64,000 nucleotides of DNA from Candidatus Ghiorseimicrobium undicola (GCA_002796125.1 PCWA01000109.1:1347-65346), one strand, 5' to 3'; counted from the first letter of the stretch, positions 3,090-53,494 are shown. Notes: generated by a model not told the origin, from the sequence alone. Translations and numbers: made by a program.

Positions 3090-3893
3090 TTATACGATAG
3101 GAATAGTCATGCCGTCGTATGCGCATATTACGTTTACGCCCAGTTTATTCCTAAGCTCATCTTCCAATATATGCGGTTTAGCCTTAAGCATAGACATCCC
3201 AAAATGAGTAATAATTGCTTCTTTTGGCTTAGATATTTTAATAATATTTTCCGCATCAGCAAGGCTTAAATGGTCAACCCCGGGGTGCGGCTGATGAAAA
3301 ACCACATTTATGATTAAAATATCCGAGCCGTATGCATGGGATAATTCATCAAAATAACGCGTATCGCTTATCAACCCAACAGTCCTAGCACCAAGCTCAA
3401 ATTTTAAGCCATATGTTTCCACGCTATGGATATGACGCATAGCAGTGAAGAATTTTAGCTTACCTACAGTATAAGCAGCATTTTCCTTCAATATCTCCAC
3501 TCTCTCAATAGCGCCGCGTATATGAGAAGATATAATTGGTTCCGAATCAATGGCATCTGCGGGAAGAAACAATGAACCCCTTTTCCTAAATCCCCCTTCG
3601 GTCATGGCTTCCAGCATAACATTAACATCGTTAGAGTGATCAAGATGACGGTGCGTAATAATAACGCTATCCAGCTGTTCGGGATCAAGCTTAGGACGCG
3701 AGCTTAAACACCTTAGCAAACTCCCCGGCCCGGGGTCTAAGAGAACATTTACGCCTTCATAATTTATCCAGATGCCTCCGGAAGCCCTTAACTGTTTCAG
3801 CATCACAAAACGCGCACCAGCCGTTCCAAGAAACTTAAGAAAACCGCCGGAGCCCTGCTGTATTTTACGCTGCTTTTTAAATTTTTCAGGCAT
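3090..3893 (-). CDS. Metallo-beta-lactamase fold hydrolase
   Basis: 267 aa; HRHLDH (HxHxDH) zinc-binding motif. Confidence 0.7.
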   Translation of the reverse strand: MPEKFKKQRKIQQGSGGFLKFLGTAGARFVMLKQLRASGGIWINYEGVNVLLDPGPGSLLRCLSSRPKLDPEQLDSVIITHRHLDHSNDVNVMLEAMTEGGFRKRGSLFLPADAIDSEPIISSHIRGAIERVEILKENAAYTVGKLKFFTAMRHIHSVETYGLKFELGARTVGLISDTRYFDELSHAYGSDILIINVVFHQPHPGVDHLSLADAENIIKISKPKEAIITHFGMSMLKAKPHILEDELRNKLGVNVICAYDGMTIPIV

Positions 3894-3898
3894 CTGTT

Positions 3899-4038
3899 TA
3901 GTGCGCTGTTAATTTAATTTTTAATAGGACAGCGCACAGAGCAATTGAGCAATAGATAATAGAACAATAGACAAGCAAAAGCTCAATTGCGGTCTATTTT
4001 CTATTGCTCTATTGTTCAAGAATTAGTTTAACAATGTA
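3899..4038. repeat. Structured ~140 bp repeat, copy A; inverted copy of 17479-17621
   Basis: Nested palindromes gtgcgctgt...acagcgcac and gcaattgagc...gctcaattgc. The reverse complement matches 17494-17621 with about 4 mismatches. Confidence 0.85.
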
Positions 4039-4059
4039 TTAGCATGATTTTTAAGTAAG

Positions 4060-4551
4060 TTATTCTTCTTTCAGCCAAAACCTGCTCAATTCTTCGGTGA
4101 TCTTGCGCTCCAAAGAAGGCAAAAGCTTAATATTATCGCTTTTATGATCCAGTTTTTTCTCTTTTTTCCGCAGAAACTCATCAACGCCGACCCATAACGC
4201 ACCCTGCGCGCGCACCCGATAACCCAATTGCCTGTCATCCGTAATAACTACGGCATTTTTTGGATTAGGCATTCTATCCACCATCTCAACAATTACCCCA
4301 TCGGCGTCCTTAGACCTGGAAAAAATAATCTTAATATTGCCGTATTTCTTTTTATCTTCATTTAAAACATAATTACCGGGATTATGAAGGGCATCAAAAA
4401 CTACGGTTATGTTATTACGGAGGCTTTGGGAGATTTTATTGGTTTGTAAAAACCTGAGGAAGAGATCCCTTGCTTCTTCCAGGTTTTTATCTTTCCAGGC
4501 CTGAGATTTTTTTACCACGTTGTAACCATCGATTATGTAGTGCAACGACAT
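4060..4551 (-). CDS. YacP-like NYN-domain protein (putative Rae1-type ribonuclease)
   Basis: 163 aa; N-terminal IIDGYNVV motif typical of YacP/NYN. Overlaps the upstream ORF by 65 bp. Confidence 0.6.
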   Translation of the reverse strand: MSLHYIIDGYNVVKKSQAWKDKNLEEARDLFLRFLQTNKISQSLRNNITVVFDALHNPGNYVLNEDKKKYGNIKIIFSRSKDADGVIVEMVDRMPNPKNAVVITDDRQLGYRVRAQGALWVGVDEFLRKKEKKLDHKSDNIKLLPSLERKITEELSRFWLKEE

Positions 4552-5458
4552 AAATTATCCCGCATAAAATACTGGCTATGGCCATAAAAGAAAAGTTTAG
4601 CAATGAGGCGGCTACGGCAATATCTTTGGTTATGCCGACCTTAGCAAAAAAGAAAGCGCTACCCATATCTCTTATTCCCAGGCCTCCGATAGAAAGAGGT
4701 ATCATAGCGGCTACATTAATCAACGGAACCGCGATAAAGAAGAAAATAAGATTCAGCTTATATCCCAAAGAAAGAAATATTAAATAATAGCTGAAGACTA
4801 TGGCAATCTGCGCCAGAAGCGAAATCAGCAAAGAATCCAATAAAACCTTTTTCTTTTTGCGGAAAAAGAAAATTTCCGCATGCAGGCTCTCCGCCTTTAT
4901 CCTGAATGAATTAACAGGAATTAACATCTTCAATTTAGAAAAAAGATTTTTAGTAAAAAATATCCAAACCATAATCAGTACTATTGAAAATAAAATCAAT
5001 ACCGGATTTAATATCCCTTGTTCTTTAATATAGGTGTGGCCTAAACCGATAGATATTAGAACTATCAGGCTTAAAGCTACAAATCCGGATAATCTATCCA
5101 GCAGTACGGTCGCGGCTATTTCTCGCGTACGCTTTGCATGATTTGTTAAATCAGCGATGCGTACAAAATCCCCCCCTATCGTTGAGGGCAAAAAAAGATT
5201 AAAAAATATTCCGCCGGCGTAAGAAACTACTAGGCGCCCAAAAGGCGCGTTGACACCAGCGCTTTTCAATAAAAGGCACCAGCGGAAAAAACAAAGAATA
5301 TAAATTAATAAAAAAAGCAAACCGGTTAAACATAATAATTCCCATCTGGCTGTATGAGTAACGCCGATAATCTTTTTAATACCTATCCATTTAAACAAAA
5401 AAAACAGCATAACTATGCTTATGCTGGCCCTTAAGACAATAGAAAATATTACTTTCAC
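4487..5458 (-). CDS. Membrane protein with lysylphosphatidylglycerol-synthase-type TM (flippase-like) domain, UPF0104/MprF-like
   Basis: 323 aa polytopic membrane protein; LPSTIGGDFVR motif. Confidence 0.6.
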   Translation of the reverse strand: MKVIFSIVLRASISIVMLFFLFKWIGIKKIIGVTHTARWELLCLTGLLFLLIYILCFFRWCLLLKSAGVNAPFGRLVVSYAGGIFFNLFLPSTIGGDFVRIADLTNHAKRTREIAATVLLDRLSGFVALSLIVLISIGLGHTYIKEQGILNPVLILFSIVLIMVWIFFTKNLFSKLKMLIPVNSFRIKAESLHAEIFFFRKKKKVLLDSLLISLLAQIAIVFSYYLIFLSLGYKLNLIFFFIAVPLINVAAMIPLSIGGLGIRDMGSAFFFAKVGITKDIAVAASLLNFSFMAIASILCGIIYVVALHNRWLQRGKKISGLER

Positions 5459-5463
5459 TTATA

Positions 5464-7260
5464 TCATCCTTTGTAATTCTTTATACGGGAATATAATGCC
5501 TTATATTCCTGCCAAAGTTCACGCGGCAGGCTATTTTTAAACTTCTTAAAGAAAGTCTTTATGCTTTCCAATTCTACCATCCAGTCCTTTTTATGTATTT
5601 CAAAAAGCTTCTGCAGTGAATTTTTACTAAGTTTTAGCCCGGTTATATCTATATCAGATATTTTTGGTATATATCCTACGGGGGTTTGAACTGCGCTAAT
5701 CTTATTGTTGCACCTGTCAAGTATCCATTCCAGAACTCTTAAGTTTTCTCCAAAGCCGGGCCAGAGAAACTTACCGTTTTCATCTATTCTAAACCAATTA
5801 ACATGAAAAATTTTCGGAGCTTTGGGCATATTTTTACCCATCTTCAACCAATGTTTAAAGTATTCTGCCATATTATATCCGCAAAACGGAAACATTGCCA
5901 TGGGGTCGCGGCGGACCTCTCCTAATTTCCCTACTTGCGCTGCCGTACGCTCAGAAGCCATAGTAGCCCCTAAAAACACTCCATGCTGCCAATTAAACGA
6001 TTCATAAACCAAAGGCGCTAAATGCTGCCGTCGTCCGCCAAAAACAATAGCGGATATAGGCACGCCGTGGTGCTGTTCTAATCGAAATGATACGCTGGGA
6101 CAATTCTCTATGGGGGTAGTAAAACGGCTATTTGGATGCGCGCCTAGAATAGGCCTGCCGGAGGCATCAAACATCCCCGGTCTCCATGGCCTCCCCTGCC
6201 AATCAATACCTTCGGCAGGTATTTCTCCGTCAGCTCCTTCCCACCATACCGTGCCATCAGGCTTTAAAAGTACGTTGGTAAAGATAGTATCTTTTTTTAT
6301 TGTTTCGACCATATTCGGGTTAGTCCGGCTGTTGGTGCCCGGGGCTACGCCAAAAAATCCCGACTCCGGATTAATCGCCCAAAGCGCGCCGTCAGAATCA
6401 ATGCGCATCCATGCAATATCATCTCCCACTGTCCATATACGATAACCCTTTCGCCTCAGGCCCTGAGGAGGAATTAACATGGCAAGATTTGTTTTACCGC
6501 AGGCACTGGGAAAAGCCGCGGCAATATATTCTATGTGGCCGTTAGGCTCTTCTATGCCCATAATTAACATATGCTCTGCCAACCACATTTCCCGGCGGGC
6601 GATGACACTTGCGATTCTCAAAGAAAGGCACTTTTTACCCAGAAGAACGTTACCGCCATAGCCGGAACCAACGCTCCATATAGTGTTATCTTCCGGAAAA
6701 TGCAATATCATACGTTTATTAATATCCAAATCTGCCTTAGAATGCAGGCATTTAGTAAAATCATCCTTATCTTCCAGGTGCCGTAAGACAGCTTCCCCTA
6801 CCCGCGTCATAATTAACATGTTCAATACAACATAACGCGAATCAGTAAGCTCTACGCCTATTTTACTGAATTCCGAACCAACCGGCCCCATCGAAAAAGG
6901 AATAACGTACATGGTCCGCCAACGCATGGAGCCCTTAAAAATAGCCTCCGCTTTTTTGTAAGCCAATTTCGGAGGCATCCAGTTACTTGTCGGCCCTGCC
7001 GTACGCTTTCTTTTTGTACATATAAAAGTGAGGTGTTCCGTACGCGCCACATCATCTATTGATGTACGATGCAAAAAACATCCAGGGAGCTTCTTTTGAT
7101 TTAAACGGATAAGCTCTCCGCTTAACACCGATTCTTCCTGAAGCCTAAGTTTTTGCTCTTCTGAACCGTCAATCCAAACAATATCCTGCGGCTCGCATAA
7201 TCGCGTCATTTTATCAACCCAATTGATTAATTTTTTATTGTGTGTAGGATATTTCTTCAT
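5464..7260 (-). CDS. pckG: Phosphoenolpyruvate carboxykinase (GTP)
   Basis: 598 aa; GTP-PEPCK motifs (FPSACGKTN, the kinase-1a P-loop). Confidence 0.9.
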   Translation of the reverse strand: MKKYPTHNKKLINWVDKMTRLCEPQDIVWIDGSEEQKLRLQEESVLSGELIRLNQKKLPGCFLHRTSIDDVARTEHLTFICTKRKRTAGPTSNWMPPKLAYKKAEAIFKGSMRWRTMYVIPFSMGPVGSEFSKIGVELTDSRYVVLNMLIMTRVGEAVLRHLEDKDDFTKCLHSKADLDINKRMILHFPEDNTIWSVGSGYGGNVLLGKKCLSLRIASVIARREMWLAEHMLIMGIEEPNGHIEYIAAAFPSACGKTNLAMLIPPQGLRRKGYRIWTVGDDIAWMRIDSDGALWAINPESGFFGVAPGTNSRTNPNMVETIKKDTIFTNVLLKPDGTVWWEGADGEIPAEGIDWQGRPWRPGMFDASGRPILGAHPNSRFTTPIENCPSVSFRLEQHHGVPISAIVFGGRRQHLAPLVYESFNWQHGVFLGATMASERTAAQVGKLGEVRRDPMAMFPFCGYNMAEYFKHWLKMGKNMPKAPKIFHVNWFRIDENGKFLWPGFGENLRVLEWILDRCNNKISAVQTPVGYIPKISDIDITGLKLSKNSLQKLFEIHKKDWMVELESIKTFFKKFKNSLPRELWQEYKALYSRIKNYKG

Positions 7261-7261
7261 G

Positions 7262-8176
7262 TTAATTTAGGCTCTCCAGATACCGCTGGATGCAGAAAGC
7301 AGCAGTCGCCCCATCAGAACAAGCAGTAACTACTTGCCTTAATATCTTCTGGCGGCAGTCGCCGGCGGCAAATATACCTTTTTTGTTTGTCTGCATACAT
7401 TCATCGGTCAAAATATGGCCGTGTTCATCTAATTTTACTAAATCAGCCAGGAAACCGGTTGCCGGAGCCCTCCCCACATATATAAAAACCCCGCTGCAGC
7501 GTATATTTTCTTCTTTTTTTGTCTTAACATTCTTCAAGACCATCCCATCTACTTTATCTTTGCCTGATATTTTCACGACTACAGAATCCCAGACAGGCGT
7601 AATTTTATCATTACCAAGCACCCTCTCCCTCAGTATTTCCGCAGCTCTTAAAGTATCTCTTCGATGAACAAGAAAAACTTTCTCGCAGAATTTAGCCAGA
7701 TACAAGGCCTCTTCTACGGCGGTATCACCGCCGCCAATAACCGCTACCTGCTTGCCGCGGAATAAAGGCGCATCACAAGTGGCGCAATAGGAAACCCCTT
7801 TACCAATCAATAAATCTTCCCCCTCAACACCCAGGCGCTTAGGGTCAGAGCCCACCGAAATAATAATTGATTTAGATATACGCTCCGCTATATCTGTCTT
7901 TACGATCCAGCCGGATTCATCTTTCTTTATACCGCTTACTTCTTCTTGTAAAATCTCAACGCCCAGGCCCTTAACCTGTTTTTCCATATCAAGCATCAGG
8001 TCCCTGGCCAAAGGCGGCTCTTTAAAACCAGGGTAATTTTCTATGTATTCCGTAAGTAAAATCTGTCCGCCGCATGAAATTTTTTCCAAAATAAGAGTCT
8101 TTAATTTGCTTCTGCCGGCATATAACCCCGCTGTTAATCCAGCAGGGCCTGCCCCGATTATTACTACATCATACAT
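7262..8176 (-). CDS. trxB: Thioredoxin-disulfide reductase
   Basis: 304 aa; GAGPAG FAD site, CATC redox motif, NADPH GGGDTA site. Confidence 0.9.
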   Translation of the reverse strand: MYDVVIIGAGPAGLTAGLYAGRSKLKTLILEKISCGGQILLTEYIENYPGFKEPPLARDLMLDMEKQVKGLGVEILQEEVSGIKKDESGWIVKTDIAERISKSIIISVGSDPKRLGVEGEDLLIGKGVSYCATCDAPLFRGKQVAVIGGGDTAVEEALYLAKFCEKVFLVHRRDTLRAAEILRERVLGNDKITPVWDSVVVKISGKDKVDGMVLKNVKTKKEENIRCSGVFIYVGRAPATGFLADLVKLDEHGHILTDECMQTNKKGIFAAGDCRQKILRQVVTACSDGATAAFCIQRYLESLN

Positions 8177-9051
8177 TATTTAAATCCTTTCAAGCGGCGA
8201 TAGGTTTCCTCCGCTTTATACGAGCTTCTTACCAAAGGCCCTGATAAAACAGCCTTGAAACCCAAATCCAATGCAATATTTCTATATTCTATAAATTCTT
8301 CTCTGTCAAGAAATCTTTTTACGGGAAAATGCCGCTTTGATGGAGAAAGATATTGCCCCAGTGTAATTATATCGCAGTCAACGCTTTTTAAATCTCTTAA
8401 AACTTTTATAACCTCATCTTTTTTTTCCCCCAGGCCCAGCATTATACCCGACTTAACCGGCATCGCGGGATCCAGAGCCTTGATACTGCGCAAAACAGCC
8501 AACGATCTGTCATAAAAAGAGCTGTCGCGCCTAAGCTCGGGATAAAGGCGCTTAACCATTTCAAGATTATGCGCAAGGCAGTCCGGTTTTTCATATACGA
8601 TTTTATGCAAAGCATCGAAAGATCCTGAAAAATCAGGAATAAGCAGTTCTATTTTTGTATCCTTGCCCAGAGAGCGTATAGATCTTAATACTTTTATAAA
8701 CTGGCTGCATCCGTAATCTAGTAAATCATCACGCGTTACGGAAGTAATTACCGCATAAGCAAGCCCCATGCTTTCTATCGCAAGCGCTATATTCAAAGCT
8801 TCATTATCATCAAGCTCATCCGGAGCGCCTTTATCCACCGCGCAAAAAAGGCATTTACGCGTACAGATATCTCCCAGGATCAAAAAGGTAGCGGTATTAT
8901 CCTTTAGGCAGCGGCTTAAATTCGGGCAACGCGCGCTCGAACAAACCGTATTTATATTGTATTTGGAAAATAAGGTTTTCCTTTTTTCCAGTAAAATACT
9001 ATCCGGTATTTGCTGAAAAAATTGAACAGGAAGATCAAAGGGCAAAATCAC
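8176..9051 (-). CDS. lipA: Lipoyl synthase
   Basis: 291 aa; CX4CX5C auxiliary cluster (CSSARCPNLSRC), radical-SAM CTRKCLFC, C-terminal RSSY. Confidence 0.85.
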   Translation of the reverse strand: MILPFDLPVQFFQQIPDSILLEKRKTLFSKYNINTVCSSARCPNLSRCLKDNTATFLILGDICTRKCLFCAVDKGAPDELDDNEALNIALAIESMGLAYAVITSVTRDDLLDYGCSQFIKVLRSIRSLGKDTKIELLIPDFSGSFDALHKIVYEKPDCLAHNLEMVKRLYPELRRDSSFYDRSLAVLRSIKALDPAMPVKSGIMLGLGEKKDEVIKVLRDLKSVDCDIITLGQYLSPSKRHFPVKRFLDREEFIEYRNIALDLGFKAVLSGPLVRSSYKAEETYRRLKGFK

Positions 9052-9063
9052 TCCTTAATATTG

Positions 9064-9264
9064 TTACTTTTGATTTATCTTTATGAAATTTTCTACGGAC
9101 CTATCGTAGGCGCGTTCTGCCTGGGGGTTAAAAAAACAAGCGGGAAGCTGCCGGTTTTTTCTGTGATACAATATACATTCACAACAGACACCTTTCCTGC
9201 CGCAGGAACTATAAGTACAATTACAGTTTTTTAAATTAATTTCTTTATTTACGCAATTAGACAT
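9064..9264 (-). CDS. Small cysteine-rich protein (8 Cys in 66 aa), possible metal-binding
   Basis: C-x9-C-x-C-x4-C-x5-CC-x-C-x12-C; ends 13 bp upstream of lipA on the same strand. I do not recognise a family. Confidence 0.4.
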   Translation of the reverse strand: MSNCVNKEINLKNCNCTYSSCGRKGVCCECILYHRKNRQLPACFFNPQAERAYDRSVENFIKINQK

Positions 9265-9309
9265 TTTTCACTGTGAGCTGCCCCGCTTGCCGCGGTGAAA
9301 TACCCGCCG

Positions 9310-9816
9310 CTAATTAAGGCGAAGCGCCTTCTTCCTAGCCTTTGAAAAATCGGCCTTTAGAAGAAGCTTCCTATGCCATGGAGCATAATCAATAATTAAC
9401 TTTCCGTTTAAATGGTCCACCTCATGCTGAAAAACCCTAGCAAGCAAATCATGGGCATCGAATTTTACTGATTGGTTATGTTCATTGATCCCGGCTACTA
9501 CGATATCTTTTGCCCGGCACACTTTCACAACAATATCAGGGAGGCTAAGGCAACCCTCCTCCTGGCTGACTCTGCCTGCTTTCTTTATGATTTTAGGATT
9601 GGCAATTTTAATTATACCCGTGCCTATATCAATAACCAGCATCTGCTTATTGACGCCTACCTGATTGGCAGCCAGGCCTACGCCGTTGGCTTTATGCATA
9701 ATTTCAACCATAGAAGAAAAAAAAGCGCGTTCTTCTTCCCCGATAAACTGCAAACACTCTGTTTTCTTCTTTAATACAGGGGAGGCGTAGGTATATATCT
9801 TTAATTCTTTGCTCAT
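9310..9816 (-). CDS. def: Peptide deformylase
   Basis: 168 aa; GVGLAANQ, EGCLS, QHEVDHL motifs. Confidence 0.9.
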   Translation of the reverse strand: MSKELKIYTYASPVLKKKTECLQFIGEEERAFFSSMVEIMHKANGVGLAANQVGVNKQMLVIDIGTGIIKIANPKIIKKAGRVSQEEGCLSLPDIVVKVCRAKDIVVAGINEHNQSVKFDAHDLLARVFQHEVDHLNGKLIIDYAPWHRKLLLKADFSKARKKALRLN

Positions 9817-10169
9817 TTTATCTTTTCTATTTTATTACTTTTATTTAAATAAACTATTTTCGGCTTTAATGCTTTGGCATCAGATTCGCTTACATTAACA
9901 TAGCCTAAGATTATCACTTCATCGCCCACGCAGGCAAAACGCGCGGCTGGGCCATTCAGACAGATTATACCGCTATTTTCTTTACCGACTATAGCATAAG
10001 TTTCTATGCGCTGTCCATTATTCAAATTAAGAACCTCTACCTTTTCATGCGGATAAATATCTGCCGCTTTTAATATAACGTTATCTATGGTAATGCTGCC
10101 CTCATACTGAAGCTCCGCCTGCGTAACCTGCGCTTTATGAATTTTTGATTTTAACATCGTTCTAAACAT
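9813..10169 (-). CDS. panD: Aspartate 1-decarboxylase
   Basis: 118 aa; MFRTMLKSKIHKA...GSITID pyruvoyl-dependent PanD signature. Confidence 0.9.
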   Translation of the reverse strand: MFRTMLKSKIHKAQVTQAELQYEGSITIDNVILKAADIYPHEKVEVLNLNNGQRIETYAIVGKENSGIICLNGPAARFACVGDEVIILGYVNVSESDAKALKPKIVYLNKSNKIEKIK

Positions 10170-10197
10170 ATTTTACCCCTTGTAAAAATTCCCGCTT

Positions 10198-11256
10198 TTA
10201 TTTTACCAGATCATAGGCTTTTTCAGCTATAAGCAATTCCTCGCGGGTTTTAATTACGCAAACCTTGGGCTTTTTTTTGAAATTATTAAAAAGCCCTCTA
10301 CTAATAGCCGATACTACAGACCTTTGATTTTCTCCTATACCGCCGCAAAAAACTAATAAATCCACATTTCCCAAAACCGCCGTATACGCCCCAATGTATT
10401 TCCTGATACGATAAACAAAGATATCAAGCGCAAGCTGTGCCCTCTTGTTTCCTTTTAGTGCGGCCTTTTTTATATAACGCATATCATTTGTTATGCCGCT
10501 TATTCCTTTTAACCCGCTTTCCCTGTTTAAAATCTCATCTATTCTTCCCGGGCGCAATTTTTTAAGGCGCATAATGTAAGTTATCAGAGCGGGATCCAAA
10601 TCTCCGCACCTGGTACCCATAAGCAGCCCTTCTAAAGGGGTAAAACCCATGCTTGTATCTACCGAACTGCCCTTGTATATAGCGCTGATACTGGCTCCAT
10701 TACCTAAATGGCAACTGATTAAATTTATTTTATTTAAGGGCTTATTTAATATACGGCGCGCTTCATGAAGCATGTACTCATGGCTTATCCCATGGAACCC
10801 GTATTTACGAATTTTAAACTTTTTATAATAGTCATAAGGCAAGCCGTAAATATAAGCATGCTCAGGCAGTGTTTGATGAAACGCCGTATCAAAAACAGCT
10901 ACCTGAGGAACATTTTTTAAGACCTGCTTACAGGCAATTATTCCGGAAAGATTAGCCGGGTTATGCAAAGGAGCCAAAGCAGAAAGCGCCCTTATGTTTT
11001 CTATTACCTTCGAATTTATAATAGTGGGGCTGTGAAATTTCTCGCCTCCGTGCACTACGCGATGGCCAACGCACGAAATATAGCCCAGCTTTTCTAAAAT
11101 TAACTTAAGCCCCTGCTTGTGATCCCTTATCAAAGAACCCTTCTCTCCTATTTTATCTATATGCCCCTTTTTAAGTACCGCTTTCTGCGGCATCAAAAAT
11201 AATTCATATTTAATGGAGGAGCTGCCGCTGTTTATAACTAATATCTTCATGCTCAT
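10198..11256 (-). CDS. ackA: Acetate kinase
   Basis: 352 aa; ASKHA acetate/propionate kinase motifs (LVINSGSSSIKY, HLGNGASI). Confidence 0.85.
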   Translation of the reverse strand: MSMKILVINSGSSSIKYELFLMPQKAVLKKGHIDKIGEKGSLIRDHKQGLKLILEKLGYISCVGHRVVHGGEKFHSPTIINSKVIENIRALSALAPLHNPANLSGIIACKQVLKNVPQVAVFDTAFHQTLPEHAYIYGLPYDYYKKFKIRKYGFHGISHEYMLHEARRILNKPLNKINLISCHLGNGASISAIYKGSSVDTSMGFTPLEGLLMGTRCGDLDPALITYIMRLKKLRPGRIDEILNRESGLKGISGITNDMRYIKKAALKGNKRAQLALDIFVYRIRKYIGAYTAVLGNVDLLVFCGGIGENQRSVVSAISRGLFNNFKKKPKVCVIKTREELLIAEKAYDLVK

Positions 11257-11257
11257 T

Positions 11258-12190
11258 TTATTCTTGCGACCTTATGGCTGTAATTGCAACGCAATCGACC
11301 ACATCATCCGCGCTGCAGCCGCGGGATAAATCGCAGCAAGGCTTTTTCAACCCCTGCAGTATCGGCCCTATAGCGCGGGCGCCTGAAAGCCGCTGTACTA
11401 ACTTATAACCTATATTCCCTGAATTCAGGTCGGGGAATATCAAAACATTAGCCCTGCCTTCTAAAACATCATAGGCATTTTTTATCTTGGCTACTTCGGG
11501 AACTATCGCGCTATCAGCCTGCATTTCTCCATCTAATAATAAATCCGGGTTAATTTCCTTTGCCAGGCGCGTAGCTTCCTTTACTTTTTCCAGCAAAGGA
11601 TGCCTGCTTGAACCTTTGGTCGAAAAACTAAGCATAGCAACTCGGGGCTCAATAGACAAAATTTTTTTCGCTAAGTCTGCGGTTGAAAGCGCTATATGGG
11701 CGAGCTGTCTGGCATTGGGATCAGGCACTATCCCGCAATCAGCAAAAAATAATAAACCATTCTCGCCAAAAGATTGGTCCGAAACCGACATTATAAAGCA
11801 GCTGGATATAACACTAAAACGCGCATCCAAACCCACGCAATATATCGCGGCCCTGGCGACATCGGGTGTCGTATGTGAAGCGCCGGCAACAAAACCATCA
11901 GCAAGGCCGGCCCTAACCATCATTGCGGCATAATAAACCGGCGAAAACATTACACGCTCAGCCTCCTGACGGCTAATACCTTTAGCCTTGCGTATTTCAT
12001 AAAATGAATCCGCATATTCTTTGATTTTTTCTTTTTCCATATTACTCTTACTTAAAAGAATCACTTCGGCAATATTCTCTTTTCTTATGATATCGGCTGC
12101 CTTTATCACCCTTTGATCATCCGCCTCGGGCAGAATTATGCGTTTTTTATTTTTCTTTGCCTTTTCCCTGATAAAGTTTTCGATGTCCAT
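11258..12190 (-). CDS. pta: Phosphate acetyltransferase, catalytic PTA_PTB domain (C-terminal half of a long-form Pta)
   Basis: 310 aa PTA domain; separate ORF starting 8 nt after the stop of the upstream N-terminal-domain ORF. Confidence 0.8.
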   Translation of the reverse strand: MDIENFIREKAKKNKKRIILPEADDQRVIKAADIIRKENIAEVILLSKSNMEKEKIKEYADSFYEIRKAKGISRQEAERVMFSPVYYAAMMVRAGLADGFVAGASHTTPDVARAAIYCVGLDARFSVISSCFIMSVSDQSFGENGLLFFADCGIVPDPNARQLAHIALSTADLAKKILSIEPRVAMLSFSTKGSSRHPLLEKVKEATRLAKEINPDLLLDGEMQADSAIVPEVAKIKNAYDVLEGRANVLIFPDLNSGNIGYKLVQRLSGARAIGPILQGLKKPCCDLSRGCSADDVVDCVAITAIRSQE

Positions 12191-12198
12191 ATGTTAGT

Positions 12199-13299
12199 TT
12201 ATATATCCGCGGATATTCTTTCCAAATCCACATTGTTTTTTACCAAATTAATTATCTCTTCAATCTTCTCATTATCCTGCGGCCTTATCTTGATAGTTAA
12301 ATCATGTATGATAGAGGCTACTTTGTAAGTATCAAGGCTGGATAAAAGAATAGGCACGTTTATTGACTGAGCAAAATCAATAATTGTTTTGTGCGGGATG
12401 ACGCCTCCGGAAAGAACTATGCCGGAAACATTGATACATCCCTTTATCTGTGAGCTATGGCAATTTAAAGCCGTCATGATCATATCTTCTCTGTCTCCCG
12501 GAGTAATCATCAAGCACCTATCAGAGATATAATTTAACGCGTCATGCGGGCCCATGGCGCCTACGATAATTTTCATCACGACATTATTCAGGCCCTCTTC
12601 TCCGCAAATCAATTTAAAATCCGCCTCCTCCGCAACCTGTCCTATGGTAGGAGCGCAAAGGCGGGGATGATACGGAATCACACCCAACACATCTATGCCT
12701 TTCCTGCTTAAACCCTTGCGTACCAATTTATTAATCTTATCAAACTTATCCGGCATTATTTTATTTATAATTACTCCCAGAAGCCTGACTCCGCAGGAAT
12801 CAAAAAGCGTTTTATTCAAAACTATTTCATCTATCGGCCTGCCTATCCCTCCGGAAGAGACCAAGATCACCTTAGCGCCCAATAACTTTGCTACATAAGC
12901 GTTGGAATGGTCGAATACACTGCCCACTCCCGCATGCCCCGTACCTTCAATCACCACGAAATCCTTTTGGGCAGCTATACGCTCATAGGAAGCCAGTATA
13001 CGTTCGGTAATCGCCTCCTTGTTTGGATGCAGGATATATTCTTCGGTAAATCCTTTTTCGACTGCGACAGGGCTCATATCCTTGAGCCCGCATTTGATAC
13101 CGCAGACCTCTTCTATCAAGACCGAGTCTTCATCCACTTTTACGCCTTCTTCAATAAGGTATCTCTGCCCTATAGGCTTTATAAAGCCGATTTTTTTATA
13201 CATTTTGCTGAAGTTAGAAATAAGGCCTAAACACGTGGTGGTCTTGCCGTCATTCTGGCGCGTTGCGGCAATAAATATATTTTTATGATTATTGCTCAT
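12199..13299 (-). CDS. Pta N-terminal domain protein (P-loop CobQ/DRTGG-type regulatory half of long Pta)
   Basis: 366 aa; GKTT P-loop, matches the N-terminal half of E. coli-type Pta; own stop (TAA) at 12199. Confidence 0.7.
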   Translation of the reverse strand: MSNNHKNIFIAATRQNDGKTTTCLGLISNFSKMYKKIGFIKPIGQRYLIEEGVKVDEDSVLIEEVCGIKCGLKDMSPVAVEKGFTEEYILHPNKEAITERILASYERIAAQKDFVVIEGTGHAGVGSVFDHSNAYVAKLLGAKVILVSSGGIGRPIDEIVLNKTLFDSCGVRLLGVIINKIMPDKFDKINKLVRKGLSRKGIDVLGVIPYHPRLCAPTIGQVAEEADFKLICGEEGLNNVVMKIIVGAMGPHDALNYISDRCLMITPGDREDMIMTALNCHSSQIKGCINVSGIVLSGGVIPHKTIIDFAQSINVPILLSSLDTYKVASIIHDLTIKIRPQDNEKIEEIINLVKNNVDLERISADI

Positions 13300-13339
13300 A
13301 AGCTAAATTATATAACCCTTGGCAACTCCCAGCTTCATA

Positions 13340-13660
13340 TTATAAGCTCGAATCTATTTTCTGCTTTAACTGTTGCTTGCTTAATGCGCCGACAACCTGA
13401 TTTACAACCTTGCCGTTTTTGAATATTACCAAAGTAGGCACGGACATTATCCCGTAATTAGAAGCCGTGTCCTGGCCTTCGTCTATATCAAGCTTGCCTA
13501 CCTTTAAACGGCCTTTGTATTCTTCGGCTAGTTCCTCAACTATAGGCGCTATTGCCTTACACGGCCCGCACCACGAAGCGGAAAAATCAACCAATACCGG
13601 CAAGGCGGAAGAAACAACTTCCTGATTAAAATTTCCATCACTAAGATGAATTAAAGACAT
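13340..13660 (-). CDS. trxA: Thioredoxin
   Basis: WCGPCK active site; likely start at MSLIHL (GGAGGGA SD upstream) rather than the ORF-track start at 13687. Confidence 0.85.
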   Translation of the reverse strand: MSLIHLSDGNFNQEVVSSALPVLVDFSASWCGPCKAIAPIVEELAEEYKGRLKVGKLDIDEGQDTASNYGIMSVPTLVIFKNGKVVNQVVGALSKQQLKQKIDSSL

Positions 13661-13812
13661 ACTCCCTCCATTAATAAAGTTTATCAATATTTAAACAAGA
13701 ATAGGAATTGCCAGAAGGTTATTGCCTATATGAAATAGAGGCAAGGAGTTTCTGAGCGTAAAAAAATATAATAGCATAAAATAGCCTTTATTTCAATATT
13801 CAAATCCGGCAC

Positions 13813-14049
13813 GGTAGTATGCGGAAAATTGTGTAAATTCGCCTGCTGGCTTGGGCTGATTTTGAGCAGGGCGTAACGCAGGCCGAGCAGGCAAGGTTCG
13901 CCTTTGATTGCATATTGGCGAGAGCGAGGCCGAGTAGCCGAGCGCGATTTTCCACGCTGGGGAAAATCGCGCGTCCCCGCGAAAAATAAGGCCAAGCCAG
14001 CGGCCATGTTAATCCGCTATAATTTACACAATTTATTCTACACAACCAA
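13813..14049. mobile_element. Non-autonomous MITE-like element with IS256-family-like terminal inverted repeats and a GC-rich palindromic core
   Basis: Left end ggtagtatgcggaaaattgtgtaaatt (13813-13839) and right end aatttacacaatttatt (14021-14037) mirror the IR pattern ggtagtat...aattgtgtgtaaatt / aatttacacaatttatt at the ends of the IS at 28911-30276. Flanked by 12-bp direct repeat ccggcacggtag (13806-13817, 14050-14061). Core is ~55% GC against a ~38% genome. Confidence 0.7.
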
Positions 14050-14086
14050 CCGGCACGGTAGCATTTATTAATAAGACAACTGCGCG

Positions 14087-15082
14087 CTATTTCACGCTAT
14101 ACAAACAAACCCTGTTTTTGCCTAGATTCTTCGCTTCATAAAGCGCCCTGTCGGCCTTATCCATCAAATCTTTATCGCTTTGCGCATCAATGGGAAAGCT
14201 GGTAATTCCTATGCTTATAGTCGCCCTTAAAACAGTATCGTAGGCTTTTATAACGTTATCTTCCACTGCCCTTCGTATGCGCTCAGCGGCAAACAAAGCC
14301 GCCTGCTTATCCGTCTCCGGAAGTATGAGTATAAATTCTTCCCCCCCAAACCTGCCTAATAAATCTATAGATCTGATGTTTTCCTTTATTACAGACGATA
14401 CCGCCACCAAAACAACATCGCCTATCAAATGCCCAAGCCGGTCATTATATTCTTTAAAATTATCTACATCAATCATCACGCAGGAAAGGAAAAGATTATT
14501 ATGCCGGCAGCGTAAAACCTCTTCCTTGAGACGCTCCAGGCAATGACGCTTAACTAGAACCTGTGTAAGGTTATCGGTTATTGACAATTCCTGCATTACC
14601 TGATAAAGCTCCGCCCGTTTCCGGACCAAAGCAAATTGATTAGCAAGAATCTTAAATTTATCCTTATTGCCGCCTTCTAAGCCTTTTACGGCTAAAGCTT
14701 CCATGCCCTGATTTTCCAAGCTAAGCGGAAAAACGAAATAACAATTATCTATTTTTTCAAGCTCCTCTCTATTCAATAATAAGCATTCCGCGATGCCTAA
14801 AACCGATTTTAAAATATTCTTAAATATAATAAATATTTTATTCTTGTCCAATGTTTTTGATATGTCTTTTACGACTTTATAAAGCGTTGTAACATTCCGG
14901 TATTCTTCTTCTAAAAGCAAAGATTGGCTTCTTATGCTCTTTAACTTATCCAGCATCGTATTATATTCATTCCGGTATTTTTCAAATTCAGCATTCTGCC
15001 TCAAGGAAAAATTCCTGCCTGCTTCCCTTACCTGCAAAATAACAACCAGAGATAAAATTATAACCGCAATTAAGAAAAACAT
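14087..15082 (-). CDS. Diguanylate cyclase (TM + coiled coil + GGDEF)
   Basis: 331 aa; GGEEF active site, N-terminal TM helix. Confidence 0.8.
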   Translation of the reverse strand: MFFLIAVIILSLVVILQVREAGRNFSLRQNAEFEKYRNEYNTMLDKLKSIRSQSLLLEEEYRNVTTLYKVVKDISKTLDKNKIFIIFKNILKSVLGIAECLLLNREELEKIDNCYFVFPLSLENQGMEALAVKGLEGGNKDKFKILANQFALVRKRAELYQVMQELSITDNLTQVLVKRHCLERLKEEVLRCRHNNLFLSCVMIDVDNFKEYNDRLGHLIGDVVLVAVSSVIKENIRSIDLLGRFGGEEFILILPETDKQAALFAAERIRRAVEDNVIKAYDTVLRATISIGITSFPIDAQSDKDLMDKADRALYEAKNLGKNRVCLYSVK

Positions 15083-16359
15083 ACTTTATTTCTTCCCGCG
15101 CTCTTTGCCCGATAAAGGCGCTTATCTACCACCTGTAATAATTTTTCTCCCGATAATCCGTCTTCGGGAAAACTACATAATCCGATTGACATGGTGGCGG
15201 AATTTTTCATTCTGCGTAAAACTATCTCTCTTTTTTCCACGCTCTTCCTTATTTCCTCCGCAACAGCCCTTGCCTGTTTTTTATCAAAGCCGCTCAGAAG
15301 TATAATAAATTCCTCTCCTCCGTAACGGGAAATTATTGATTTTCCTTTTGGAGAACACCGGCGCAAACATGCCGCTATCTCTGTCAATAAAATATCACCG
15401 GCTATATGGCCGAATTTATCATTATATTTTTTAAAGTTATCTACATCGGCCATGATTAAGGAAAAAACCGCCTCTTCCTTACCGGATTGTTTTATTTCTT
15501 CGTTTAAGCATACCATAAAATACTGCCTGAGATAACAACCTGTCAAGCCGTCGGTTATGGCTAATTGCTGTGTATATTGATAAAGGCGCGCATTGTCTAT
15601 GGACAAAGCGGCTATGTCAGAAAAAGCGCGGAGATACCTTAAGTCCTCAGAAGAAAACCTTTCCCTTTCGCTGTGTTCTGCGCGTAATATACCTATAATT
15701 CTTTTACCTACAAACAAAGGAACGCTTATCAAGGACCCCAAATAACGCCGTAAAGCATAATTTTTATCTATGTTAAAACGGAAATCGCCATTAACATCCT
15801 CAACTAGAAGCGGCATCTGATGTTTAAAAACCCAACTGTCAAAAATATCGGCGCCGATATCCTTGGCCGGATAATTTTTAGCGCCCAAAGATTTATAAAC
15901 AGTCAAGGCCTGTTTTTGCGTATCCAAAAGATATAAAACAACTCTTCCGTTAGAATTTGCGACCAAAGCATAAATCCGCTCAATTATAATTTTAGCCGTG
16001 CGTTCCAGTGAAAGCGACTGCATTAGTATCTGCATGAGATTCTGTAACTGGCTATACCTGCCGATCTTATCTGAAAGCACGGAAAGCCTATAAGACTCTT
16101 TTTTCGCTTCCTCTTCTAATATGTTTATTTTTTCCAGAAGCTTATCTTTTTCAAATGATATGTTATTATTTTTGCTGCGGTTAAAAGCGTGAATAAAATA
16201 GCAAAAAAGGATGGTAAGTAAATATGCGGAGAGAAAAAATTTAACCAGGCCGGGATAGAATTTAATCCCGTAATATATAGGAATTACAAAGTAGGAAACA
16301 AGAAAGAAAAGATAATATAATCTGTTGTTAAATAATAGTTTCTTCTGTGGCCTTATCAA
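15070..16359 (-). CDS. Diguanylate cyclase (TM + GAF + GGDEF)
   Basis: 429 aa; GGEEF motif, GAF-like middle region, two N-terminal TM helices. Confidence 0.8.
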
Positions 16360-17431
16360 AGAAATGCACCTTGTTCATATCAAAAACCAATTCCATATCC
16401 TGTCCTACCTGCGGTTTATCATGCCCGCCAACCCTGGCAATAAATGTGTGCTTGCCGGTATTAAGATAAAGATACACCTCGGAACCCATGGGTTCTATAA
16501 CTTCACAGCTGGCCTTTACGATATTTTCCGGAGGCGCATCTGAAACGAATAATTTATCATAAATATTTTCGCACCTAATTCCCATGATTATTTCCTTATT
16601 TAAAAAATCGGCCAGTTTATTTTTCATACTGTCAACTATCTTGACTAAAATCCTGCCTTCTTCAAAATAAATTTTGCCGTTCTTTTTTATCAGCCTGCCC
16701 GACATAAAATTCATCGGTGGTGAACCAATAAAACTAGCCACAAATTTATTTTTCGGCCTATCATATACATCTACAGGGGCGTCAACCTGTTGCAAAATAC
16801 CGTCCTTCATTACGGCAATCCTATCGCCCAAAGTCATGGCCTCAACCTGATCATGGGTTACATAAATCATTGTGCTTTTAAGGCGCGCATGCAATTTATG
16901 CAACTCTGTTCTCATTTGAGTGCGTAATTTTGCGTCTAAATTGGATAAAGGCTCATCAAATAAAAAAACCAGCGGTTTTCTTACGATCGCACGCCCTACT
17001 GCCACGCGCTGGCGTTCGCCGCCGGAAAGCTCCCTGGGATGCCTTTCAAGCAGCTTTTTTATACCCAGAATATCGGCTGCTTCATTCACGCGGTTGACTA
17101 TCTCCTGCTTGGGATAACGCCGGAGCTTAAGCCCGAACGCCATATTCTCAAACACGGTCATATGCGGGTATAAAGCGTAATTTTGAAATACCATCGCGAT
17201 ATCCCTGTCTTTGGCCGGTATATCGTTAACAAACCTGTCGCCGATATAAAGCTTGCCTTCCGAAATTTCTTCCAATCCCGCGATCATTCTCAACGTAGTA
17301 GATTTACCGCAACCGGAAGGGCCGACTAAAACCATGAATTCCTTATTTTCTATTCCAAGGCTTATATTATCTACGGCCTTAACCGCCCCAGCATAAACTT
17401 TACTTATATTGCGCAAACTTACCTGTGCCAT
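16328..17431 (-). CDS. ABC transporter ATP-binding protein, MalK/UgpC family with C-terminal TOBE domain
   Basis: 367 aa; Walker [10 protein letters not shown], signature [14 protein letters not shown], Walker [11 protein letters not shown]. No adjacent permease genes. Confidence 0.85.
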
Positions 17432-17478
17432 TTCTCCTCACTTCTTTCGAAAGCAGACGATTTTTAGTTATTGATTAC

Positions 17479-17621
17479 TAGTGCACTGTAAAATTAATTC
17501 TTGAACAATAGAGCAATAGAAAATAGACCGCAATTGAGCTTTTGCTTGTCTATTGTTCTACTCTCTATTGCTCAATTGCTCTGCGCGCTGTCCTATTAAA
17601 AATTAAATTAACAGCGCACTA
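17479..17621. repeat. Structured ~140 bp repeat, copy B (inverted relative to 3899-4038)
   Basis: Terminal inverted repeat tagtgcactgt (17479-17489) / acagcgcacta (17611-17621); internal palindromes as in copy A. Confidence 0.85.
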
Positions 17622-17651
17622 GCTACTGGCTGCTTTAAATATTATATGTCA

Positions 17652-18491
17652 TTATGTCAGATAGTCAAGCAGCTGGCTTAATATAGTTTTCAGATTTTTC
17701 CGCTGCACTATCATGTCTATCAAGCCGTGTTCCAGTAAAAATTCCGCCTTTTGAAAACCATCGGGAAGTTTTTGCCGGATGGTCTGCTCTATTACGCGCG
17801 GCCCGGCAAAACCGATAAGGGCTTTAGGCTCGGCTATAATAATATCGCCTAAACCGGCGAATGATGCCATAACCCCTGCCATAGTCGGATTCGTCAATAT
17901 AGAAATATAAAGCAAGCCTTTTCCCTGATGCCTCGCTAATGCCGCAGACGTCTTAGCCATCTGCATCAGGCTAAACATGCCTTCATACATACGCGCCCCT
18001 CCACCCGAACCTGAAATGATAATTATAGGCAACCCTTTACGGGTAGCATATTCTATGGAGCGGGTAACCTTATCCCCCACCACCGAACCCATTGAACCCA
18101 TTATGAAACGGGAATCGGTAGCGGTAAGCACCACAGCATAACTTGACAATTTCGCCTGGCCGTAAATACATGCCTCGGATAAACCGGTAAGCTCCTTATC
18201 CTGCTCTAGTTTTTCCTTATAAGTCTTTGGGCCTTTAAATTCCAGGGGATCAAGCGATTCCACATTTTTGTCAAATTCTTCGAATCTTCCGCCATCCGCT
18301 AATGATAAAATGCGCTCATAAGCCGTTAAAGAAAAATGATAGCCGCATTCAGGGCAAACCTTCAAATTTTCATCCAGCGTTTTGTTATAAATAGGCTGCA
18401 GGCAGTCCTGGCACTTAGTCCATAAGCCGTCAGGCATTTGTTTTTTCTTAGTGCGTACAATCGTATATTTAGGTTTTCCGAATAAAGACAT
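17652..18491 (-). CDS. accD: Acetyl-CoA carboxylase carboxyltransferase beta subunit
   Basis: 279 aa; N-terminal CxxC...CxxC zinc ribbon plus carboxyltransferase domain. Confidence 0.85.
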   Translation of the reverse strand: MSLFGKPKYTIVRTKKKQMPDGLWTKCQDCLQPIYNKTLDENLKVCPECGYHFSLTAYERILSLADGGRFEEFDKNVESLDPLEFKGPKTYKEKLEQDKELTGLSEACIYGQAKLSSYAVVLTATDSRFIMGSMGSVVGDKVTRSIEYATRKGLPIIIISGSGGGARMYEGMFSLMQMAKTSAALARHQGKGLLYISILTNPTMAGVMASFAGLGDIIIAEPKALIGFAGPRVIEQTIRQKLPDGFQKAEFLLEHGLIDMIVQRKNLKTILSQLLDYLT

Positions 18492-53023: not shown

Positions 53024-53359
53024 TTATTTATGTTTTAAATCCAATTCTATCTTAAGATGAACCGTGCGCTTCAAAATCGGCGCAGCCCTGCCAAACGCCG
53101 CTGCCCGGTATCGCTTCCATCTTGCGCCTTCATCAGCGCTGATACGGGATATATAGAGCTGTTGAGGTTCTATGCCTTTAACTTTAGCGTTAGCAATAGC
53201 AGAACGAAGCGTTTTAAGCACGTAATCCCGCGGACGCTTATTTAAATTAGGCAATAAGCCCAACGCATAAGAAACATCTTCGCCTCTAATTAAATCAATG
53301 ACTTCGCGTGTTTTTCTTGGTGACAGCCTTAAAAATTTGTTTTCTGCTCTTGATATCAT
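53024..53359 (-). CDS. rplV: 50S ribosomal protein L22
   Basis: 111 aa. Confidence 0.95.
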   Translation of the reverse strand: MISRAENKFLRLSPRKTREVIDLIRGEDVSYALGLLPNLNKRPRDYVLKTLRSAIANAKVKGIEPQQLYISRISADEGARWKRYRAAAFGRAAPILKRTVHLKIELDLKHK

Positions 53360-53483: not shown

Positions 53484-53494
53484 TTTAAATTATA

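Follow-up and report, generated by a model that had tools for sequence, protein, structure and literature searches.

Two inverted copies of a short repeat, 13.4 kb apart in the genome of Candidatus Ghiorseimicrobium undicola, are very probably two separate insertions of a MITE-like, non-coding dispersed repeat of about 142-144 bp that this Omnitrophota bacterium shares with its relatives, and their inverted placement is incidental. They lie in a stretch of 64,000 nucleotides, called the window here. A preliminary description of the window had taken the pair as a bracket around a metabolic gene block, either a substrate for inversion or the ends of a composite or MITE-flanked unit. We find that the copies are ordinary members of a dispersed hairpin repeat whose core is a tRNA-trailer module, so the 13.4 kb block is not marked as a unit.

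The two arms, copy A (3899-4042, plus strand) and copy B (17478-17621, minus strand), are each 144 nt long, 94% complementary and 13,435 nt apart, and form by far the longest repeat pair of the 64-kb window. The reverse-complement relationship first described is real, but it includes 8 mismatches over 144 nt rather than about four. Five of the eight fall within the final 17 nt, and the copies share exact runs of 37, 20 and 66 nt. Sub-motifs of the element occur in the window in copies A and B only, and shuffled sequences predict 0.00-0.16 occurrences. A search with nhmmer --max of the window and of syntenic relatives detected no degraded or extra copies besides A and B.

Both copies are intergenic, as first described, and sit in spacers between minus-strand genes. 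Copy A separates a gene for an MBL-fold hydrolase (3090-3893), directly downstream by transcription, from a yacP-like NYN gene (4060-4551) whose stop codon is 18 nt from the copy. Its sense strand is the plus strand of the window, antisense to both neighbors. Copy B, with its sense strand on the minus strand, is co-directional with the malK-like ABC ATPase gene downstream (16328-17431) and the accD-like carboxyltransferase gene upstream (17652-18491). The gene list originally given for the interval agrees with Pfam calls on identical contigs and with syntenic relatives. The 144-nt element overlaps no ORF of at least 80 aa, and the window contains neither tRNA genes nor a four-helix-bundle gene. 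Within the copies we found no intrinsic terminator or promoter consensus; a promoter-like site with 11/12 matches lies immediately upstream of copy B.

In three distant relatives with conserved synteny (64-66% amino-acid identity), the yacP and MBL genes overlap by about 20 nt and the element is absent, and the order mprF-like, yacP, MBL, hflX, pilMNO is kept in all three. Copy A is therefore an insertion within an ancestral operon junction and not the boundary of a unit. Most of the block, from trxA to yacP, is likewise syntenic in element-free relatives, as is its continuation past copy A; pckG and the GGDEF-GGDEF-malK genes are absent from the corresponding places in the three relatives.

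Each copy opens with an 11-nt terminal inverted repeat, TAGTGCGCTGT (3899-3909, plus strand, in copy A; 17611-17621, minus strand, in copy B). Together with an internal inverted copy of itself, this repeat makes up a hairpin that we call HP1. In copy A, HP1 spans 3901-3937, its 5' arm (3901-3909) overlapping the terminal repeat and pairing perfectly over 9 bp with the 3' arm (3929-3937); in copy B it spans 17583-17619, with arms at 17611-17619 and 17583-17591. A conserved core of about 80 nt follows, consisting of AGAGCAATTGAGC, AATAGA units, a loop, GCTCAATTGCGG, TCTATTG units and a TTCAA end. On the plus strand of copy A, this core comprises motif a (GAGCAATTGAGC, 3939-3950), which is near-invariant throughout the family; arm b (3951-3972), three AATAGA-type units that form the left arm of a long hairpin; motif a' (GCTCAATTGC, 3981-3990), the complement of motif a, with compensatory changes in divergent copies; and arm b' (3991-4017), GG followed by TCTATT(G)-type units that form the right arm. 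The copy B core occupies 17503-17581 on the minus strand (a, 17570-17581; b, 17548-17569; a', 17530-17539; b', 17503-17529). The tail of the element repeats the 3' arm of HP1 and supplies the right terminal repeat, ACAGTGCACTA (ACAGYGCACTA; 17479-17489, minus strand, in copy B).

Two details of the earlier account change with this anatomy. Terminal inverted repeats are present at 10/11 positions in copy B and conserved in 18 unique full copies that carry both ends, but the copy A tail, ACAATGTATTA (4031-4041, plus strand), is degraded and matches at only 7/11. What had been described as nested 9-10 bp palindromes are actually two complementary segment pairs, GTGCGCTGT/ACAGCGCAC (9 bp, HP1) and GCAATTGAGC/GCTCAATTGC (10 bp), alongside an imperfect hairpin of about 26 bp whose arms are the AATAGA and TCTATT units.

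Copies of the element occupy many unrelated intergenic sites, in both orientations, in related Omnitrophota genomes and metagenomes, so a special relation to the 13.4 kb block does not hold as far as it can be tested. The core 18-mer matched 35 genome loci and occurs in one Omnitrophica GWA2_41_15 genome 13 times at 12 loci; the full-length copies recovered by this search are 84-90% identical to those in the window. A two-part core pattern matched 115 metagenome stretches, and dozens of metagenome contigs carry the repeat. The identity of copy A to copy B (94.4%) is about the same as to the copies at loci L097 (93.8%) and L166 (92.4%). Both loci come from the same sample series, with a tetranucleotide correlation of 0.95-0.97 that is no higher than between related species. 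We discarded one further match, in a cyanobacterial MAG, as a chance 18-mer in a coding region (22 nt match only). The core 18-mer had no match among IMG/VR viral contigs, and hence there is no sign of a phage vector. Rfam returned no window match at the gathering threshold and, in E-value mode, only generic hairpins such as miRNA precursors, far under threshold. A literature search on the core strings, Omnitrophota MITEs and PF05635/TIGR02436 found no description of the element.

The element looks like a MITE, with its 11-nt terminal inverted repeats, C|TA...TA|G flanks and ends that are often at stop codons. MITEs are recognized as non-coding sequences of less than about 300 bp with terminal inverted repeats, dispersed and polymorphic placement, a fixed target-site duplication and a cognate IS. 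The window element is short and non-coding, has terminal inverted repeats, and is multi-copy, dispersed and polymorphic in presence or absence. It forms a small repeat family distinct from the IS256-type ends, as the preliminary description had it. C precedes TAG in 11/18 copies and G follows CTA in 11/18, and the terminal TAG serves as the stop codon of the neighboring ORF in at least six. Where both flanking genes are co-directional, six copies are in the sense and three in the antisense orientation. Since no empty site was found at nucleotide resolution, the TA target duplication is read from the flanks only. Neither the window nor about 1 Mb of fetched loci contains an autonomous IS with matching terminal repeats; the sole transposase of the window is IS256-type, with ends unrelated to the element. 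Mobilization in trans would fall to an IS630- or IS5-type DDE transposase with TA or CTAG as its target. In an FCPU426 variant, the same core lies between different 22-nt terminal repeats, so a simple origin from one IS and one MITE does not explain the family: the core module has been adopted by at least two different MITE frames.

Other classes of mobile sequence fit less well. REP/BIME elements with RAYT were rejected on unit length (144 nt vs 20-40 nt) and on a G before TAG in only 5/18 copies. Integron attC sites are defined by R''/L''...L'/R' boxes, RYYYAAC...GTTRRRY ends and cassette arrays adjoining intI; the element begins AGAGCAATTG... and ends ...TTGTTCAAAA, lacks the RYYYAAC/GTTRRRY pair and has no cassette-array context in the window. 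IS200/IS605-type ends, weighed on anatomy, did not match.

In several candidate phyla, HP1 and the core of the window element also exist as a module that trails tRNA genes and shares their strand. The core is near-invariant in MAGs labelled as at least six phyla, and the hosts include Omnitrophota, FCPU426, Elusimicrobia, Goldiibacteriota, and Planctomycetota- and Nitrospirota-labelled MAGs. Of 151 modules, 55 lie 21-46 nt 3' of a tRNA gene, 54 of these on the tRNA strand, and at tRNA loci a hairpin of variable sequence always precedes the core. The tRNAs concerned serve 13 amino acids, and at two loci consecutive tRNAs each have a module of their own. HP1 pairs with the NCCA end of its own tRNA, with the discriminator base compensated. 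A PF05635/TIGR02436 ORF, the four-helix-bundle gene of the 23S-rRNA-IVS type, starts within about 40 nt after 24 modules; in tRNA-linked cassettes this ORF has often decayed or been deleted, with the RNA part still in place. HP1-like hairpins are rare in tRNAs that lack the module (10/54, vs 54/56 with it), so HP1 seems to travel with the core and is unlikely to be a pre-existing target such as a tRNA terminator. With a T-tract 5' and an A-tract 3', it is not a terminator on either strand. The window repeat appears to derive from this tRNA-trailer module. Transcribed as part of an operon, it would form long hairpins open to cleavage by RNase III, like IVS stems and Correia elements.

Folding is strong on both strands of copy A (-55.6 kcal/mol, z = -7.8, plus strand; -45.7 kcal/mol, z = -6.2, minus strand), and the RNAalifold consensus contains HP1 and the 26-bp hairpin. 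HP1 has compensatory changes at two pairs among 17 copies and forms a perfect stem despite its variable sequence, reaching at least 8 in 70/122 distinct upstream sequences vs 0/610 shuffles. The a:a' helix shows compensatory changes at 5 of its 10 pairs, amounting to 13 compensatory cells vs 3.9 in shuffles, a value reached by 0/500 of them. The long stem b:b' lacks covariation, its variable positions giving frequent A.A and A.G mismatches, and the balance of G.U and A.C mismatches points to no particular RNA strand. The a:a' and b:b' helices are interleaved and so cannot form simultaneously. We rejected a pseudoknot of the two on geometry, as loops of 0-2 nt would have to span helices of 10 and 25 bp; they are therefore alternative helices.

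A broader reading, which we offer tentatively, is that HP1 and the core constitute an undescribed structured module, of RNA or single-stranded DNA, almost unchanged across several candidate phyla. The module may define a selfish cassette that installs itself at the exact 3' ends of tRNA genes, possibly with an NCCA direct repeat, and that carries the IVS four-helix-bundle gene. Such a cassette would be a free-living mobile relative of IVS elements, and the window copies would be its non-autonomous, MITE-packaged derivatives. To our knowledge, the origin and mobility of IVS elements have never been explained.

It is also possible, if doubtful, that the copies are not purely selfish DNA but are retained as RNA. 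In polycistronic transcripts they could serve as a hairpin for processing (at an RNase III site, for example) or for stability, or as a platform that binds protein, a part that the tRNA-trailer module would play in tRNA precursors. An RNA role would suit the strong folding of both strands, the compensatory changes in a:a' and HP1, the tRNA-strand orientation at 54/55 loci, the pairing of HP1 with the NCCA end and the promoter-like site upstream of copy B, which would put that copy in a 5' leader. A precedent exists in the Coxiella 23S IVS, where a tandem-heptamer stem (GACAGAT x3) precedes the homologous S23p ORF and is cut by RNase III (PMC4990558).

Other observations argue against retention as RNA. 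The MITE form faces both ways in mRNA contexts, the window copies included, and the copy A site is empty in relatives. The long stem b:b' also lacks covariation.

We consider it unlikely that the family moves without a DDE transposase, as single-stranded DNA hairpins handled by an HUH/Y1 enzyme (REP/RAYT or IS200/IS605 PATE type) or a structure-targeting recombinase, with HP1 as the recognized or targeted hairpin. Such a route would accommodate a core that always begins 0-2 nt past the foot of a sequence-variable hairpin and terminates in ...TTGTTCAA, the fixed orientation at tRNA genes, and a shared core that FCPU426 and Omnitrophota frame with different outer repeats. However, HUH elements have neither true terminal inverted repeats nor TA-type flanks, and the MITE form has both; the scarcity of HP1-like hairpins at module-less tRNAs does not fit a hairpin that serves as target. 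No Y1 or RAYT gene was noticed incidentally.

There is little to recommend the pair as a functional inversion switch, or as a regular site at which homologous recombination turns the 13.4 kb block around. At 94% identity and in inverted orientation, the arms have one exact run of 66 nt in common, which by minimal homology lengths suffices for rare RecA-dependent exchange. A rare RecA-mediated inversion over this run is physically possible, but it is unobserved. All six population contigs that span a copy, from several samples, have the window arrangement and none the inversion isomer, although this sampling is shallow and comes from short-read assemblies. Inversion would also set 13 co-directional genes against their neighbors and split operons, no invertase or recombinase gene adjoins either copy, and the copy A junction is the ancestral yacP/MBL junction. 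GC skew, which had been suggested as a boundary check, is negative throughout the window and, like G+C content, does not change through either copy.

Highly improbable, and close to refuted, is a composite or MITE-flanked mobile unit that ended in the two copies and imported the metabolic block. Inverted repeats do surround a compact gene block, and in the three relatives pckG and the GGDEF-GGDEF-malK genes are missing from these positions. But an element without an ORF cannot act as an IS arm in a composite transposon, composition is continuous, the trxA-to-yacP portion is syntenic through and past copy A in relatives without the element, and many unrelated sites hold a single copy of the element.

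The 13.4 kb metabolic block is neither mobile nor invertible as a unit; its gene order is ancestral, with two repeats inserted. The two insertions also explain why window-population contigs break at these two places (7/13 break inside the element). Beyond the block, the repeat reveals an unannotated, highly conserved module, a fixed-orientation tRNA trailer in poorly known phyla that stands ahead of a 23S-IVS protein gene. If this module is processed from tRNA precursors, it would offer a testable model for the expression and spread of IVS-type genes, and for the cutting of tRNA operons in lineages where RNA processing is unstudied.

Among known systems, invertible segments and IS-bounded composite transposons share with the window an inverted repeat pair around a multi-gene segment. 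In contrast to them, the window repeats have no recombinase or transposase inside or adjoining, show one isomer, with no composition or synteny break at copy A, and belong to an ordinary dispersed family. ERIC/IRU and REP/BIME of enterobacteria are likewise dispersed, imperfectly palindromic, intergenic, transcribed repeats in either orientation. Unlike the window element, ERIC lacks defined terminal repeats and TA flanks, and REP is 20-40 nt long, has a GTAG head and is RAYT-linked; neither has a core in common with tRNA trailers.

The tRNA-linked cassettes are closer to the 23S rRNA IVS of Coxiella and Leptospira, with which they share the PF05635 protein family (PMC4990558). In both, a short-tandem-repeat stem precedes the ORF (heptamers in Coxiella, AATAGA-type units here), residence is in stable-RNA transcription units, and the ORF is often lost while the RNA part persists. 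The cassettes differ in lying after tRNA genes, not in 23S helices 25 or 45, and in that their hairpin does not enclose the ORF but lies entirely upstream of it. The window copies themselves are not 23S IVS elements, as they lie in mRNA spacers and operons and have no ORF.

Correia elements (CREE/NEMIS) of Neisseria and RUP of Streptococcus pneumoniae are about 100-160 bp long, non-coding, and bounded by terminal inverted repeats with target flanks of the TA type. Found between genes in either orientation, and often just past stop codons or within operons, they form long hairpins when transcribed; RNase III cleavage is reported for Correia elements, and RUP is a MITE moved by IS630-Spn1. The window element resembles them in size, terminal inverted repeats, TA-type flanks, intergenic sites often at stop codons or within operons, use of both orientations and hairpins. 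It has no sequence relationship to either, its cognate IS was not found and its terminal repeat is only 11 nt long, the left one doubling as half of an internal hairpin. Above all, its interior is not a deleted transposase remnant but a conserved module that stands alone after tRNA genes in other phyla.

A repeat search of the window returned a single outstanding inverted pair, copy A (3899-4042, plus strand) and copy B (17478-17621, minus strand), each 144 nt long, 94% complementary and spaced 13,435 nt apart. Direct comparison of the two gives 8 mismatches, 5 of them in the last 17 nt, and exact shared runs of 37, 20 and 66 nt. Within the window the element's sub-motifs occur only in these copies, where shuffled sequences lead one to expect 0.00-0.16 occurrences. 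Around both copies, every long ORF runs on the minus strand. The spacer between an MBL-fold gene (3090-3893) and yacP (4060-4551) contains copy A, and that between a malK-like gene (16328-17431) and accD (17652-18491) contains copy B, so that both are intergenic, as the preliminary description had it. That description is confirmed except for its count of about 4 mismatches; its "nested palindromes" are better termed pairs of complementary segments. Folding the element as a single strand gives two hairpins (-55.6 kcal/mol and z = -7.8 for the plus strand; z = -6.2 for the complement). Just upstream of copy B, a candidate sigma-70-type promoter (17641-17668, minus strand; TTGACT, 16 nt, TATAAT; 11/12 match) straddles the end of accD, whose stop is at 17652. 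If real, this promoter would make copy B part of the malK-like gene's 5' leader.

The pair had been read as special to the 13.4 kb block of metabolic genes between the copies, either as the substrate for its inversion or as the ends of a composite or mobile unit. A search for further copies was suggested at the time. The core 18-mer AGCTCAATTGCGGTCTAT matched 35 loci in a collection holding one genome per species, and with one or two exceptions the match is genuine and extends over 80-145 nt. A single Omnitrophica genome, GWA2_41_15, accounts for 12 of these loci (13 matches) and has repeats of the whole 144-nt unit at 84-90% identity. A two-part core pattern matched 115 metagenome stretches. 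Copy A shares 94.4% identity with copy B, 93.8% with L097 and 92.4% with L166, the last two being other loci from the same sample series. Because copy A is nearly as close to them as to copy B, A and B are not a privileged pair. Thirteen contigs from several samples have genes identical to the window's, and 7 of the 13 terminate within the element, as contigs usually do at multi-copy repeats. The population occurs in JGI samples 3300004196, 3300004208, 3300004209, 3300025833 and 3300025850, in ERZ27293412-14, and in SRR6240784 and SRR6240790.

Base composition is continuous: over 1-64,000, GC skew is always negative, between -0.06 and -0.24, and G+C lies within 38-45%, neither with a step at copy A or B. 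All six contigs that cross a copy (L036, L040, L041, L042, L045 and L046) have the window arrangement. Three syntenic relatives (L049, L051 and L052), whose MBL proteins are 64-66% identical to the window's, keep the order trxA, pta, ackA, panD, def, lipA, trxB, mprF-like, yacP, MBL, hflX, pilM-N-O, which runs through the site of copy A. In all three the yacP and MBL genes overlap by about 20 nt, and the element, when looked for, was absent. Copy A has therefore been inserted at an old operon junction. The window keeps the ancestral neighbours at this junction, which is at odds with both a unit boundary and a fixed inversion. The GTP-dependent PEPCK gene (5464-7260, minus strand), between trxB and the mprF-like gene, is missing from that position in the same relatives and has therefore been gained or lost within the block in a lineage-specific way. 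Overall, the evidence does not support the 13.4 kb block as an invertible or mobile unit, and copies A and B probably reflect two insertions of a MITE-like dispersed repeat that are incidental to it.

We derived a consensus from a full-length alignment of 17 copies. It opens with a first hairpin, HP1 (5'-TAGTGCGCTGT, an AT-rich loop, then ACAGCGCAC), and continues, after an A, with a core composed of motif a (GAGCAATTGAGC), arm b (three AATAGA-type units), a loop, motif a' (GCTCAATTGC), GG and arm b' (three TCTATT(G)-type units), before ending in TTCAAAAAC and TAATTTTACARYGCACTA-3'. The first 11 nt and the last 11 nt are inverted repeats of each other. Across all loci, 18 unique copies have both terminal repeats; the preceding base is C in 11 of the 18 and the following base is G in 11, the pattern to expect if insertion takes place at TA within CTAG, as it does for IS630 and some elements of the IS5 group. 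All copies but one are intergenic, and in at least six the terminal TAG (or its complement) serves as the stop codon of the adjoining ORF. At loci with co-directional genes on both sides, six copies are sense and three antisense, to which the window adds one of each. We found no promoter or terminator consensus within the elements and no cognate transposase in the window or the fetched loci. The sole transposase in the window, which is also its only long plus-strand ORF, is of the IS256 family (29036-30268; PF00872, E = 1.8e-88), and its ends bear no relation to the 144-nt element, as had been proposed. These features are those of a MITE, from which we infer a target duplication and a mobilising enzyme; the latter is quite possibly a TA-targeting DDE transposase.

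Besides this element, the window contains another family of intergenic repeats, about 110 nt long, in four direct copies (45630-45765, 49025-49160, 53350-53485 and 56760-56935) on the strand opposite to the genes, in ribosomal-protein, secY and tuf spacers. Identity in its 45-nt core is 62-82%. Its conserved blocks include TTAATGAGC..ATAACTTACGGAG..GACGTAAGTT..GCGAATTAATCCCG, and it has a hairpin, AACTTACG/CGTAAGTT.

Outside the closest relatives the outer repeats are missing, and HP1 plus core, hereafter the module, persists at 84-92% identity. Going by record titles, the carrier MAGs are assigned to Omnitrophota, FCPU426, Elusimicrobia, Goldiibacteriota, Planctomycetia/Planctomycetales and Nitrospirales. 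A tRNA gene lies 21-46 nt upstream of 55 of the 151 modules in the fetched loci, and 54 of these 55 share its strand; the lone opposite-strand module has a sense-orientation fragment resembling a tRNA 3' end directly before its hairpin. The linked tRNAs cover thirteen amino acids. Modules follow each of three consecutive tRNAs (Lys, Leu, Gly) in L081 and two consecutive tRNAs (Met, Val) in L088, and many of the remaining modules are preceded by tRNA 3'-end fragments.

The gap from tRNA to core is always a hairpin of variable sequence. Watson-Crick stems of at least 8 that end 0-2 nt before the core are present in 70 of 122 distinct upstream sequences, compared to 0 of 610 shuffles, and the base of the 3' arm takes the form of 62 different 8-mers. 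When the tRNA gene encodes CCA, the stem often takes in NCCA and the 3' arm then ends in the matching TGGN. Such a hairpin follows 54 of 56 tRNAs with a module, compared to 10 of 54 without one. FCPU426 genomes carry the same core within a different 22-nt terminal repeat, also with CTAG at start and end. As the core is common to this frame and the window-type frame, the module has been taken up by MITE frames of at least two kinds; in both, two copies of the HP1 3' arm flank the core.

Several loci have further peculiarities. Some HP1 loops after tRNA-Gln (L163, L111, L135, L064, L066) copy the neighbouring tRNA's T-arm, either direct (GGTTCGAGTCCA) or inverted (GACTCGAACCAG). Two Omnitrophota tRNA-operon spacers (L002, 5800-6160; L081, 2850-3420) contain other long hairpins with tandem 7-8-nt arm units, GAGCTAA/TTAGCTC and TATGGCA-type respectively, and hairpins with arms of this kind seem typical of such spacers in general. 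In two Omnitrophota MAGs (L024 ~540-600, L027 ~7760-7815) the module directly follows three DnaA-box-like 9-mers (TTATCCACA, TTATTCACA, AATCCACA), a site that may be origin-proximal.

Within about 40 nt after 24 modules lies a four-helix-bundle ORF, behind a AAAGGTGA-like ribosome-binding site and starting M(A/P/S)F(M/L)FEN, that belongs to PF05635/TIGR02436, the "23S rRNA intervening sequence protein"; the ORF at L035 3383-3727 is an example. In several cases the ORF has been truncated or pared down to its two ends beside an intact module: those of L053, L135 and L066 have an internal deletion or retain only the first and last codons. A conserved segment, NCCA-ACC-TTGACGCTCAGGCGAAC, comes after the ORF stop in some loci and after the bare core in others; elsewhere it comes after a 3-3.2-kb insert or directly after a tRNA-Ser(gga) gene (L035 ~3360-3385, L083 565-600, L053 3090-3125, L118, L137, L106/L132, L070, L108). 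In 6 of 7 cases its NCCA agrees with the upstream tRNA's discriminator base, and the segment may form the right-hand limit of a cassette that has inserted at the 3' end of the tRNA. The best explanation for the conserved interior of the window element is that it derives from an undescribed module trailing tRNA genes and leading IVS-protein genes.

Pairing between a and a' was assessed in a hand-extracted alignment of 13 sequences. In it 94.6% of a:a' cells pair, 5 of 10 pairs have changed on both sides, and 13 cells are compensated compared to 3.9 in shuffles, none of 500 being as high; slid controls collapse. Matched changes occur in divergent second copies, which escaped selection by the search patterns (GCAATCGAAA with TTTCGATTGC, GCATTTGAGA with TCTCAAATGC, ACAATCGAGC with GCTCGATTGT), and HP1 has compensatory pairs as well. 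Across 114 unique cores the long b:b' stem is conserved in sequence, has frequent A.A or A.G mismatches at fixed positions and displays no covariation. With linkers of 0-2 nt and the order a-b-a'-b', the a:a' and b:b' helices must be alternatives; a pseudoknot combining them was rejected as sterically implausible. Mismatch spectra pointed neither to a selected strand nor to RNA over DNA, and a role in RNA processing is a tentative suggestion.

No Rfam family matches the element, IMG/VR yielded no copy, and nothing was found in the literature on the motifs, on Omnitrophota MITEs or on the protein family in such a setting. The form of the window elements is like that of Correia and RUP-type MITEs. 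The closest likeness for the tRNA-linked cassette is the 23S rRNA IVS of Coxiella and Leptospira, which has a homologous S23p ORF. In Coxiella, tandem heptamers come before this ORF, within a terminal stem of 28 bp that is cut by RNase III (PMC4990558), whereas our module sits after tRNA genes and its hairpin does not enclose the ORF. The same paper describes decay of the IVS ORF with retention of the RNA part, and gives the element as one of unknown origin (PMC4990558); the decayed ORFs of L053, L135 and L066 parallel the reductive evolution reported for the Coxiella IVS ORF.
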